Assembly: GCA_029856105.1 (NCBI GenBank)
Contig: JAHQWH010000115.1
Location: forward strand, 1 to 31,927
Direction: 5' to 3'
Source: Promethearchaeia archaeon
Lineage (GTDB): Archaea > Asgardarchaeota > Lokiarchaeia > Sigyniarchaeales > SOKP01
DNA: 31,927 bases
Notes under the pieces: model-generated
What the model was told of the DNA's origin: nothing
Database searches by the model: none
Seen by the model: the letters and a program-made list of their open reading frames with translations, nothing else
Made by a program: the position numbers and the translations under genes
Shown: in pieces, positions 8,971-13,284 of the stretch
Layout of the letters: each line of letters begins with the position of its first letter
How positions within the stretch are numbered: the stretch's first letter is position 1

Positions 8971-11223
8971 ATGGTTAAAGTAAAGAACCCCGACGAGATA
9001 GCGCAACTCATAACTACCGGTTCATACGAAAAGAAACGGTTATTTAGCATAGTAGCGCATATAGATCACGGTAAAACAACAGCAAGTGATTACTTGTTAA
9101 GGCGTGCAGGTTTAATGAGGGAAGAAGACGCCGGGCAACTTCAGATGACCGATTCTGATGAAGAAGAACAGGCAAGAGGCATAACAATATTTACGAGCGT
9201 AGTTTTACTTGCATTTAATGACCCTAGAAAGCCTGATGATGATGAGCCATATATTCTTCAAATCAATGATACGCCGGGACATATCTCCTTTACTGGAGAA
9301 GTCTCACGTGCTCTTAGAGGGAGTGACGGTGCTATAATTCTCGTCGATGCTTTAGAAGGGGTTATGACTCAAACTGAAACAAACATCCGATTAGCCGTTG
9401 GTGAAGAGTATTGCAAACCAGTTCTTTTTATCAATAAGGTAGATCGTTTAATTAGCGAGCTTAAGTTGAGTCCACAAGACACATTTATGAAAATTGATAA
9501 AATTTCAAAACAAGTAAATGAGCTAATTAAAAAGATTAGACCAGAAGGATCTAAATGGGGCGTTGATTTTGCTAAAAACAGCGTAGCTGTAGGGTCCGCT
9601 AAGCACGGATGGGGTTTTACGTACGAAATATTATTAGAAAAAGGTTTAAAACCACAAGATGTTTTCGCAAAATATACCGAAGGAGACATTCAATGGTTAA
9701 GAGATAATCTTCCACTTGACGAGCCAATGTTAAGAATGGTAGTCGATCATTTGCCCAATCCTGTGGAAGCAGCAAAATATAGGATACCTCATGTTTGGGG
9801 CGGTGATCTCAGTTCAGAACTAGGACAATCGCTTCAGAAGAGTGATCCGAACGGTCCTTTATACGGTATGATTACCAAAATATTTTTAGATCCAAGGAGA
9901 GGATATCAACCAACCTTAATAGGTAGGGTTTTTTCTGGAACGTTCCGACTATCGGACGCTATATATTTGGTAAATAACAGAAGTAGTAATCGAGTAAAAC
10001 GATTGGGGGTCATGGAAATTACAGATCTATTAGATATCCCAAAAATTCCCGCAGGAAATTTATTTGCTTTATACGGTTTTATTTGTCCCTCTGGAGAGAC
10101 ATTTATGGCAGCCAGTGATGTCCCAAAGGATAAAAATGAAGCTAAACTTCTGCCGTCTTTTGAAAAAATCCAATATGCGTGCGAACCCGTAGTTTCAAGA
10201 AGTATAAAACCACGAGACCCTCACGAAATCGACAAATTAGATACGGTAGTAAGTAAGTGGCTTCAAGCAGATCCTACTGCGATGTATCGGCGGGACAAAG
10301 AATCTGGAGAATTCATTCTAAGTGGAATAGATCCGCTTCAAATTGAAATCCTTACCAAACGGATTAATATTCAAGTTCCTATCATAATCGGTGAACCAAT
10401 TATCGTGTACCGAGAAAAAATCACCAAGAAAAGCAAACTATTCCATACTAAATCTGCCAATACTCACAACCGAATCTTGTTATACATAGAGCCTCTAGAT
10501 GAAACAACTGAGAAATTAATCGAAACTGGAAAAATCACTGATTTGATGAATGATAAAGATAGAGCAAAAACTTTAAGGGAAGACGCAGGTTGGGACGCTA
10601 AAGAAGCTAGACGCATAGTAGATGTTTACCAAGGAAGCTTACTTGTGAACGGTACATCTGGTTTACAACGATTTGATAAAGTAAAATCTTATCTAGTAGC
10701 CGCTTTTAGAGATTGGCTTGGAGAGTGTATTCTTGCAAAAGAACCAGCTGCGGGTTTTAAAGTAGTATTTACAGATATGACCATCCACGAGGACACACGA
10801 CATACTTCCTACGGACAAATTGCTGGAATGGCTTCTTCTGCTATGTCTTTAGCAATGTTGGAAGCCGATCCTCATCTTTTTGAACCTATTCAGAGAATTG
10901 ATGTGAAAACACCAGATGGATCAGAAGGACCAGTGAATGCGATTATAACAAAGCGACGGGGTAGAATTACGAACGTAATTCCAGAAGGCGAATATGTTAG
11001 AGTTCAGGGTACGATTCCTGCCGCTGAAACGATTGGTATAGCTGATGATATACGAGGTTCAACTCAAGGACGTGCGTTCTTCGGATACGAATTTGATGGT
11101 TTTGATAAAGTACCTAAAAGTCTAGAAGAAGATTTAATTCTTGAAATCCGTAAACGCAAAAACATGCCTGATCATCTACCTAATTCTTCAAGCTGGGATC
11201 GATTTATTTACAAGAAAACCTAA
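8971..11223 (+). CDS. fusA: Archaeal translation elongation factor 2 (EF-2 family; may be the canonical copy or a paralog)
   Basis: AHIDHGKTT, EQARGITI, DTPGH, NKVD, GSAKHGWG, LFEPIQ, IRGSTQGRA, EIRKRK. ATG 8971 (750 aa) is preferred because the 33 codons from TTG 8872 are AT-rich and do not resemble EF-2. Confidence 0.93.
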   Translation: MVKVKNPDEIAQLITTGSYEKKRLFSIVAHIDHGKTTASDYLLRRAGLMREEDAGQLQMTDSDEEEQARGITIFTSVVLLAFNDPRKPDDDEPYILQINDTPGHISFTGEVSRALRGSDGAIILVDALEGVMTQTETNIRLAVGEEYCKPVLFINKVDRLISELKLSPQDTFMKIDKISKQVNELIKKIRPEGSKWGVDFAKNSVAVGSAKHGWGFTYEILLEKGLKPQDVFAKYTEGDIQWLRDNLPLDEPMLRMVVDHLPNPVEAAKYRIPHVWGGDLSSELGQSLQKSDPNGPLYGMITKIFLDPRRGYQPTLIGRVFSGTFRLSDAIYLVNNRSSNRVKRLGVMEITDLLDIPKIPAGNLFALYGFICPSGETFMAASDVPKDKNEAKLLPSFEKIQYACEPVVSRSIKPRDPHEIDKLDTVVSKWLQADPTAMYRRDKESGEFILSGIDPLQIEILTKRINIQVPIIIGEPIIVYREKITKKSKLFHTKSANTHNRILLYIEPLDETTEKLIETGKITDLMNDKDRAKTLREDAGWDAKEARRIVDVYQGSLLVNGTSGLQRFDKVKSYLVAAFRDWLGECILAKEPAAGFKVVFTDMTIHEDTRHTSYGQIAGMASSAMSLAMLEADPHLFEPIQRIDVKTPDGSEGPVNAIITKRRGRITNVIPEGEYVRVQGTIPAAETIGIADDIRGSTQGRAFFGYEFDGFDKVPKSLEEDLILEIRKRKNMPDHLPNSSSWDRFIYKKT

Positions 11224-11262: not shown

Positions 11263-11528
11263 TTACATTTTAGCTCTTAAATAAAGCTTCCTAACTAAAG
11301 CTTGAAACGCTTCAATTACACCTTGACCCGTTAAAGCGCTAGTTTTAAAATAGCCCAGAAATCTATTATCGATTACATATTTTCTTCATATTTCGAAAAC
11401 TGAGTCCCCAAAGTAGAAATATAACTTTTCTGAAATGCATCAATAGTATACTTCTTAATTAACGATGTTTTCCCTACGGCCGGAGCACCAATAATGATTA
11501 TTTTAAATCCAAAAGCTTTTTCAGACAT
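11263..11528 (-). pseudogene. Internally deleted, frameshifted tandem paralog of the adjacent Rab-like small GTPase
   Basis: Minus strand from ATG 11528 reads MSEKAFGFKIIIIGAPAVGKTSLIKKYTIDAFQKSYISTLGTQFSKYEENM* (stop 11373-11375). The -1 frame then reads KYVIDNRFLGYFKTSALTGQGVIEAFQALVRKLYLRAKM* (stop 11263-11265). These align with residues 1-51 and 148-186 of the 11657-12217 protein. Confidence 0.9.
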
Positions 11529-11656
11529 TTTTTTTTGTAAAATCATTTCTTACTTTTTTAATTAGTAATAATTGAATTTTTTAAATCTTCACAAAAAAAT
11601 ATATTCTACATAGTGTTCAAGAGTTTGGATTTGTTGAATAAATAAGGAAATTCAAA

Positions 11657-12217
11657 TTATGTTTTAGTTTTAAAGTAAAGGTCTCTAACTAATTTTTGAA
11701 ATGCTTCAATAACACCTTGACCTGTTAATGCGCTTGTTTTAAAATATCCAATGAAATTATGATCTTTCGAATATTTTCCAACGTTGAAATCAGAATTTAC
11801 TTTATCCTCGTTTAGAGCTAAATCTTTCTCATCAATTAAATCGATCTTATTTCCAAATAGTGCAATTGGAATGTTTCCACAATATTCATTAAGTTCTTTA
11901 AGCCATTTATCAATGTGATCAAAACTCGTTATTTCTTCGGTTGCTTGAGAAAATACAATAATTGCAGCGCTACTTCCATTATAAAACTTACTACGCATTG
12001 TTTCAAAAACATCTTGCCCCGCGATGTCCCATAAATATAATTTAATTTGGTTTCCTTCTACAATCTCTTCGTATTTCGAAAACTGGGCGCCTAGAGTGGC
12101 GATATAATCCTTTTGAAACGATCCAGTAGTATACTTTTTAACTAAAGTTGTTTTTCCAACGGAGGGATCTCCCACTACGGTTATCTTAAATTTATACTCT
12201 TTTTCTTCGTTTGACAT
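11657..12217 (-). CDS. Rab/Ras-like small GTPase (eukaryotic signature protein)
   Basis: G1 GDPSVGKT, G2 YIATLG, G3 WDIAGQ, G4 GNKID, G5 TSALTG. No C-terminal Cys prenylation motif. Confidence 0.95.
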   Translation of the reverse strand: MSNEEKEYKFKITVVGDPSVGKTTLVKKYTTGSFQKDYIATLGAQFSKYEEIVEGNQIKLYLWDIAGQDVFETMRSKFYNGSSAAIIVFSQATEEITSFDHIDKWLKELNEYCGNIPIALFGNKIDLIDEKDLALNEDKVNSDFNVGKYSKDHNFIGYFKTSALTGQGVIEAFQKLVRDLYFKTKT

Positions 12218-12366
12218 AATATTATGTGAAAAAAGGTCTTTATTTAATTATTATTAATAAAATGTTTCAAATTATTTATATATACAAATCTTAACATTTA
12301 AAGAATTAAAGGTTATTATTAATATTATAGGTATTTTTGGAATTAATTAGATTAGATGTGATCGAT

Positions 12367-13284
12367 ATGACCGAAGATCAAGAAAATCAGAACGAAGATA
12401 AAGGCGACGATGATAAACAAGAGTCAACACAAGACCAAAATGATTTAGAAATCTATTTATCAGATATGAAAAATCTCGAAACTGATTTTTCTGATTTGGA
12501 AGATCTAGACCTTGACGAATTAAAAGAAATGCAAGAAGCAATAACAAAAGTTAAAGAACTTGATTCCTTAGAAAACGAAGAAGCTATTGAAGAGGGAATA
12601 TCAAGAGAACTTGAATTAATTGGAACTAAGCTCCAAACAAATGGTCGCGAAGAATACTTAGCACAAAAGGAAGCAATGATTAGTGACTTCTCTGATCTTG
12701 AAGAGATCGATTTTGACGAGCTTCAGGATATGCAAAAAGCTATAGAAACAGTTAAACAAGAGGATAGCCAAGTAACTGGGGAAGATATTATCCAAACTAC
12801 CGTTAGCAAAGGCATATCTTCAGAATTAGAAGAACGAATCAAACAAGAACTTATAGAGCGGAAAAAAGAAAAAGAGAAGGAAATCATAACTCCAGAAAAA
12901 TTTTTAGAGCGTGCCAAGAATAAACGCGATAAAATTTGGTACCATTCTCTTTGTTATTTAGTTTATCAAGCAGAAGATAACATCGCAAGTAAGGTGTTGC
13001 TTTATGATATGCTAAAAGAAGTTACGAGTAAAAGCCCCATTGATCCCATCCCGGAAAATCAATTTTATTTTGGATTAGGTTACATATTGAGACTTACTCT
13101 AAACGATAAGCAAGTTGTTAAATATATGAGAGGAGGTAAATTCAAAATTAATATTGGAATAAAAGGCATCAAAGAAATTTTAGAAGAAGTTGGAGAACCT
13201 ATCAGTACAAGACCTATTCTAAAAGAAGAAGAAAAGAAAAAAATGTACACAGATTTTCTAAAAGACGAATTTCTTGATATATAG
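12367..13284 (+). CDS. Hypothetical protein: acidic N-terminal half with a duplicated motif, possible winged-helix C-terminal domain
   Basis: Long ORF. The motif DFSDLE.(L/I)D.DEL..MQ.AI..VK occurs twice. Start uncertain (TTG 12337 or ATG 12367). Confidence 0.75.
   Translation: MTEDQENQNEDKGDDDKQESTQDQNDLEIYLSDMKNLETDFSDLEDLDLDELKEMQEAITKVKELDSLENEEAIEEGISRELELIGTKLQTNGREEYLAQKEAMISDFSDLEEIDFDELQDMQKAIETVKQEDSQVTGEDIIQTTVSKGISSELEERIKQELIERKKEKEKEIITPEKFLERAKNKRDKIWYHSLCYLVYQAEDNIASKVLLYDMLKEVTSKSPIDPIPENQFYFGLGYILRLTLNDKQVVKYMRGGKFKINIGIKGIKEILEEVGEPISTRPILKEEEKKKMYTDFLKDEFLDI
12481..12760 (+). repeat. Two copies of a ~26-codon intragenic repeat (about 12481-12558 and 12682-12759)
   Basis: TDFSDLEDLDLDELKEMQEAITKVKE versus SDFSDLEEIDFDELQDMQKAIETVKQ. 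Confidence 0.85.

Follow-up and report, generated by a model that had tools for sequence, protein, structure and literature searches.

Small GTPase families are much expanded in Asgard archaea, where about 50 Ras-superfamily paralogues per genome are typical of the group, and they are central to arguments on the origin of the eukaryotic endomembrane system. The Asgard Ras-superfamily proteins closest to those discussed here are stand-alone G domains of about 185 aa that carry the motifs G1 to G5 and give strong Pfam matches to Ras and Roc. Within the window, by which we mean the whole 31,927-nt stretch of Promethearchaeia archaeon contig JAHQWH010000115.1 (assembly GCA_029856105.1) that was analyzed, one GTPase gene, called copy 1 below, has exactly this form, as does the intact version of its tandem partner, copy 2, in related species. 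What the window itself holds of copy 2 differs in being a dead member of the group, with only G1, G2, and G5 kept. The label "Rab-like" used for these GTPases in the original prediction is a loose one: eukaryotic Rabs carry a C-terminal cysteine prenylation motif (CC, CxC, or CAAX), whereas none is found in copy 1 (ending ...LYFKTKT) or in copy 2 and its remnant (...LYLRAKM), and the tree described below was built from genes of the locus and paralogues from the same genome.

Two described processes bear on the history of this locus. Prokaryotic unitary pseudogenes formed by microhomology-mediated internal deletion share with it a single deletion between very short direct repeats (here GAA), a frameshift, intact flanks, and probable fixation. 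We see no essential difference from that class, and the present case is unusual only in its documentation, since it can be set beside an intact orthologue, population contigs, and several loss alleles that arose independently in sister species. Birth-and-death evolution of tandem families is likewise recognizable in a tandem duplication, the divergence of one copy, its repeated loss and, in one relative (G040), an apparent crossover hybrid. Where birth-and-death loss proceeds by unequal crossover, however, the window differs, as the event here was a microhomology deletion within copy 2. A literature search found no paper on this locus.

Across the genus, gene order at the locus runs Tyw1–EngB-like GTPase–acidic 315-aa protein–copy 1–(copy 2)–EF-2–CCA-adding enzyme. 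In the window, copy 1 (11657..12217, minus strand) is an intact 186-aa Ras-superfamily small GTPase with G1 GDPSVGKT, G3 WDIAGQ, G4 NKID, and G5 TSAL; it matches Pfam Ras (E 3e-39) and Roc (E 1.4e-30) and is 92–96% identical to its orthologues in sister species. The downstream anchor of the gene order is the EF-2 gene (8971..11223, plus strand; 750 aa, with GTP_EFTU, EFG_III, EFG_IV, and EFG_C domains), which is convergent with the copy-2 remnant and 95–96% identical in sister species. The assembly amounts to 3.66 Mb in 238 contigs, with 32% G+C and an estimated completeness of 92%, and contains about 50 Ras-like paralogues. On the far side of copy 1, window positions 12337-13284 (plus strand) encode a strongly acidic protein of 308/315 aa that has an internal repeat (DFSDLEDLDLDELKEMQEAI... 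and DFSDLEEIDFDELQDMQKAI...) and matches no Pfam family; throughout the genus it lies between the EngB-like GTPase and the GTPase pair, at 59–90% identity. A low-coverage contig (ERZ25073477 NODE_75229, 3.6x; L034) carries an 11-nt deletion in copy 1, at window positions 11873-11883, that breaks the gene into calls of 119 aa and 73 aa; it could reflect true variation or a fault of the assembly.

Between copy 1 and EF-2, the 266-nt stretch at 11263-11528 (minus strand) is the remnant of a second tandem GTPase gene. The original prediction had placed a diverged same-strand copy in this gap, with the start, P-loop, switch I, and the G5/C-terminal helix retained in open pieces, and both its coordinates and its description of the pieces hold. 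The N piece (11385..11528, minus strand) corresponds to codons 1–48, covering beta-1, the P-loop GAPAVGKT, helix 1, and switch I, whose conserved Thr is kept, and is open throughout, with the translation MSEKAFGFKIIIIGAPAVGKTSLIKKYTIDAFQKSYISTLGTQFSKYE; the first 144–147 nt of the stretch encode MSEKAFGFKIIIIGAPAVGKTSLIKKYTIDAFQKSYISTLGTQFSKYE(E). The C piece (11263..11381, minus strand) corresponds to codons 146–184 and the stop codon, covering G5 TSAL and the C-terminal helix, and translates as KYVIDNRFLGYFKTSALTGQGVIEAFQALVRKLYLRAKM*, also open but in a frame that differs from that of the N piece. The start ATG of the remnant lies at 11528 and its terminal TAA at 11263-11265 (minus strand).

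By blastn against the copy 1 gene (11657-12217), the N piece aligns ungapped at 72% identity over 140 nt (E 1e-18) and the C piece at 78% over 125 nt (E 1e-24). A tblastn search of the whole 3.66-Mb assembly returned copy 1 as the best paralogue of both the N piece (66%, E 2e-17) and the C piece (76%, E 7e-13), so the predicted kinship with the neighboring gene is significant for each half. No further copy-2-like sequence was found by tblastn in the 92%-complete assembly, where copy 1 (66%) leads the non-self matches and no other paralogue exceeds 65%. The alignment of the remnant that we use rests on blastn against copy 1 together with a breakpoint scan in which the intact gene of a sister species (G017 copy 2) served as reference; a MAFFT global alignment to copy 1 misplaces the N piece.

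Set against the defining motifs of a Ras superfamily small GTPase (PF00071 Ras / PF08477 Roc), the remnant has the G1 P-loop GxxxxGK[ST], present in the N piece as GAPAVGKT, and the Thr of G2/switch I, with its YISTLG aligning to YIATLG of copy 1. It lacks G3 DxxG and G4 NKxD, the determinant of guanine specificity, the corresponding WDIAGQ and NKID of the intact orthologue both falling within the deleted segment, and it lacks an in-frame G5: TSAL is present, but in a different frame from G1 and beyond a stop codon. Past the junction, the N-piece frame meets a TAA at 11373-11375, leaving a residual ORF (11373..11546, minus strand) of 57 aa if begun at the upstream ATG (11546), or 51 aa if begun at the ATG at 11528, which ends in ...KYEENM* and still matches Pfam Roc (E 5e-9) and Ras (E 9e-9). 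The remnant had been reported as missing from the ORF track, which is true of the track in question, but the 57-aa ORF does appear among public gene calls.

The breakpoint scan against G017 copy 2 shows both pieces to be ungapped, with 249 of the 266 retained nucleotides identical (135/144 in the ungapped N piece, 111/119 in the C piece); at the protein level, 37 of 37 residues of the C piece align, at 92–97% identity to copy 2 of G017 and of a further relative, G009. Exactly 289 nt, or 96 codons plus one nucleotide, are missing relative to the intact orthologue, which bears out the predicted absence of a 96-codon core containing G3 and G4 and the joining of the halves out of frame. At the junction (11382..11384, minus strand) lies GAA, a 3-nt microhomology that in the intact orthologue borders the 289-nt segment on either side. 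The original prediction had pointed instead to a doubled AAATATG in the junction string AAATATGAAGAAAATATG (11393-11376, minus strand). Both heptamers are indeed present, but both also exist in the intact orthologue, where they flank the deleted segment; as the two survive in the remnant as well, we reject this repeat as the mediator of the deletion and take GAA to be the real microhomology.

Microhomology-mediated end joining or replication slippage is the likely mechanism of such a GAA-flanked deletion with a frameshift. A single 289-nt deletion between two GAA triplets took out codons 49/50 to 145. Lost with them were beta-2/3, switch II with G3 DxxG, the strands of the core, and G4 NKxD, and the reading frame was shifted as well. 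The event is an illegitimate (microhomology) deletion inside copy 2, not a recombination between the copies.

That the missing 289 bases might be present in the real genome, an assembler having collapsed an intact gene, had been raised as an alternative, and both the fragmentation of this MAG (238 contigs) and the presence of two similar tandem genes at the locus could be read in its favor. The exact 57-aa ORF nevertheless occurs on 19 public contigs. Ten of these places were fetched, from ENA, Logan, and JGI samples processed by various pipelines (SPAdes-style NODE contigs, Logan contigs, and JGI assemblies), and all ten have the same 150-nt spacing to EF-2. Compared with a 1.2-kb reference running from copy 1 through the spacer and the remnant to the end of EF-2, the population contigs are 99.7–100% identical and free of gaps in the remnant, and no polymorphism was found among them inside it. 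Because the identical junction is shared by at least 10 contigs from independent samples and assemblers, and because a 3-nt repeat, far shorter than any assembler k-mer, is unable to collapse an assembly, we regard assembly error as excluded and leave the collapse reading next to no probability. A chimera of copy 1 and copy 2 is equally at odds with the data, since both halves are 93–94% identical to copy 2 vs 72–78% to copy 1 and so derive from the same diverged copy. The deletion allele is widespread in the species and has probably reached fixation.

Relatives with the same locus are Promethearchaeota (Lokiarchaeota) MAGs, such as Loki_b31, and in three sister species of the same genus (G017, G032, which is Loki_b31, and G041) the syntenic site between copy 1 and EF-2 holds an intact copy 2 of 184 aa with G1 GAPAVGKT, G3 WDIAGQ, G4 NKID, and G5 TSAL. 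We built a maximum-likelihood tree from all GTPase genes at the locus in 27 genomes, with four paralogues from the window's genome as outgroup. The remnant falls inside the copy-2 clade with support of 100/100, and its nearest row is the copy 2 of G041, at 98% protein identity over 88 columns. The stem of the copy-2 clade measures 0.26 substitutions per site vs 0.05 for copy 1, with short tips, and the two copies share about 69–73% protein identity. On this pattern, copy 2 diverged rapidly after the duplication and was conserved thereafter.

Copy 2 and copy 1 meet at an unresolved node that also takes in a clade of species with a single copy, so the duplication belongs to a small sub-clade of the genus; it predates the species splits there and yet is limited to that sub-clade. 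The tandem pair thus arose in the ancestor of a few species of the genus, after which copy 2 diverged quickly and then came under purifying selection. Elsewhere at the same site, more distant species have two or three tandem GTPase genes (G048, L060:1797-3563; also L025 and L061-L065). Judged from the tree, these doublets and the triplet are separate duplications, which makes the site a hotspot of tandem duplication.

Selection on copy 2 before its loss can be read from the codons that remain. Between the remnant and the three intact orthologues dN/dS is 0.06–0.17, comparable to the values for the intact copies themselves (0.08–0.16 for intact copy 1 and 0.13–0.29 among intact copy 2 genes). 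Polarized by the three intact genes, seven changes are specific to the window's lineage, of which six are synonymous and one is non-synonymous (T29I). Under neutrality 70–79% of changes should be non-synonymous, and one or fewer in seven has a probability of 5e-4 to 4e-3 (kappa 1–8); the remnant shows no excess of non-synonymous change across these seven lineage-specific sites, as would suit a very recent lesion. The synonymous excess of 6:1 together with the low dN/dS indicates that constraint acted on the gene along most of its branch, with the deletion coming late. Purifying selection on copy 2 accordingly lasted until not long before the deletion, a reading that, with seven substitutions only, gives a direction and not a date. 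Four synonymous changes lie in the C piece, all of them in a frame that is no longer read, and they are compatible with a recent deletion, the exact timing being loose; the out-of-frame C piece has been kept as well as the N piece. Together with the intact syntenic orthologue in three sister species and the placement in the copy-2 clade, the 6:1 ratio sustains the prediction of an old functional duplicate that was recently deleted.

This recency also bears on a reading in which a programmed frameshift at the junction joins the two pieces into an 88-aa P-loop-plus-C-helix protein. Each piece is open in its own frame and the two abut within a few bases, as such a product would need, but the openness of both is accounted for by the recency of the deletion. 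Moreover, no canonical slippery heptamer is present at 11376-11393, the product would be without G3, G4, and most of the sheet, and no relative has such a form. We give this frameshift product hardly any credence, and recent loss of the gene remains the reading that we prefer.

Loss of copy 2 is not confined to the window. Three of the seven close species keep an intact copy 2; in the remaining four, which include that of the window, the gene is damaged or missing, and no two of them lost it in the same way. In G005 (MAG HM4_B22, L023:2615-2895), a 402-nt deletion takes the spacer and codons 1 to about 98, and a further 45-nt in-frame deletion lies between TGTAATCGA-like repeats, leaving a promoterless open tail of 67 codons. 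Two contigs of G009 (MAG CSMAG_2412) conflict with one another (C373 and C59; L021:1319-1650 and L003:2188-2297): in C373 the end of copy 1 is fused, through a 323-nt deletion, to copy 2 at its WDIAGQ region, and a second deletion removes 50 nt, while in C59 the spacer and the copy 2 N-terminus are still present. Two haplotypes seem to coexist here, probably reflecting strain heterogeneity for another loss allele. In G040 (MAG CSMAG_2258, L054:2367-2927), only one GTPase gene separates the acidic protein from EF-2, and it is a hybrid: its body is of copy-1 type, but the final ~60 nt and the spacer that follows belong to the copy-2 type, with the changeover in a near-identical GYFKTSALTGQGVIEAFQ region. 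Such a hybrid is the expected product of unequal crossover between the tandem copies. Four different losses among sister species imply that copy 2 is dispensable.

Two other damaged genes came to light in the same survey. In a more distant species (G010, L024:2608-3036), the second gene of an independent doublet has in-frame stops, a degraded N-terminus, and no recognizable P-loop region, and is another pseudogene at the locus. On a 635-nt contig (ERZ3612387; P0003, L107:97-602), a Loki_b31-like copy 2 is frameshifted after ...ELFIW at G3, giving two overlapping ORFs; at 1.9x, coverage is too low to separate a lesion from an error, and we rejected this contig as an additional loss allele.

The sequence upstream of the remnant raises the question of whether anything is still made from it. 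The spacer between copy 1 and the remnant (11529..11656, minus strand) contains a T7 run at 11593-11599 and a TTTAAAAAA box at 11577-11585, and it aligns end to end with the spacer preceding copy 2 in G017 and G009. The T7 run is a putative terminator of copy 1 and the TTTAAAAAA box a candidate TATA-like promoter of copy 2 that is still in place. Since both elements are retained in alignment with those of intact genes, transcription of the remnant probably continues, and with the likely promoter kept, a P-loop peptide of 51/57 aa may be made. A part of a G domain of some 50 residues without the central sheet is unlikely to fold or to bind nucleotide; the remnant would be unable to form a GTPase fold, and any peptide would most likely be inert and short-lived, without function.

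A functional role for this peptide, as a decoy, was a further alternative in the original prediction. The residual ORF, with its P-loop, helix 1, and switch I, could be expressed and kept as a decoy micro-protein that titrates a GEF, GAP, or effector of copy 1. The retained spacer with its TATA-like box would suit such a role, as would an ORF that is open, called by gene finders, and recognizable as Ras/Roc, and the 57-aa sequence is invariant across population contigs. That invariance carries no signal, however, because the same contigs are 99.7–100% identical everywhere, and the equal preservation of the out-of-frame C piece fits recency rather than selection on the ORF. In no other species is an N-terminal-only form seen: the N-terminus is gone from C373 of G009, the whole unit from G040, and precisely the N-terminus together with the promoter from G005. 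The lack of the central sheet weighs against the decoy too, 50 such residues being poor candidates for folding or nucleotide binding. A search covering 5.8 billion proteins, at lengths of 31–100 aa, returned only the same ORF and five end-of-contig fragments (contigs of 556–1319 nt), and on this result we rejected a family of short P-loop-only proteins. We therefore consider retention as a decoy quite improbable. Slightly more doubtful still is its strongest version, in which a stably expressed 51/57-aa P-loop/switch-I mini-protein acts as a natural "dominant-negative fragment" against the regulators or effectors of copy 1 and was fixed because it was useful.

With an intact orthologue at the syntenic site and a real disabling lesion, the remnant qualifies as a pseudogene, and we conclude that it is very probably a unitary pseudogene of a tandem Ras-superfamily GTPase, copy 2, lost by a 289-nt deletion and frameshift; no observation speaks directly against this reading. 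As such it is an ordinary, recently formed pseudogene, a known kind of element and not a new one. Its practical value lies in a corrected annotation, as automatic annotation calls the 57-aa ORF a "Ras family" protein.

More broadly, the locus is a compact case of GTPase family turnover, in which a tandem duplicate diverged fast and was then lost independently at least four times among seven sister species. The routes of loss differ: a microhomology deletion in the window, more than one deletion each in two relatives, and, in the fourth species, an unequal crossover that left a hybrid. Paralogue counts in MAGs such as these include dead and chimeric members, and caution is warranted with annotations of the "small Ras family protein" kind.
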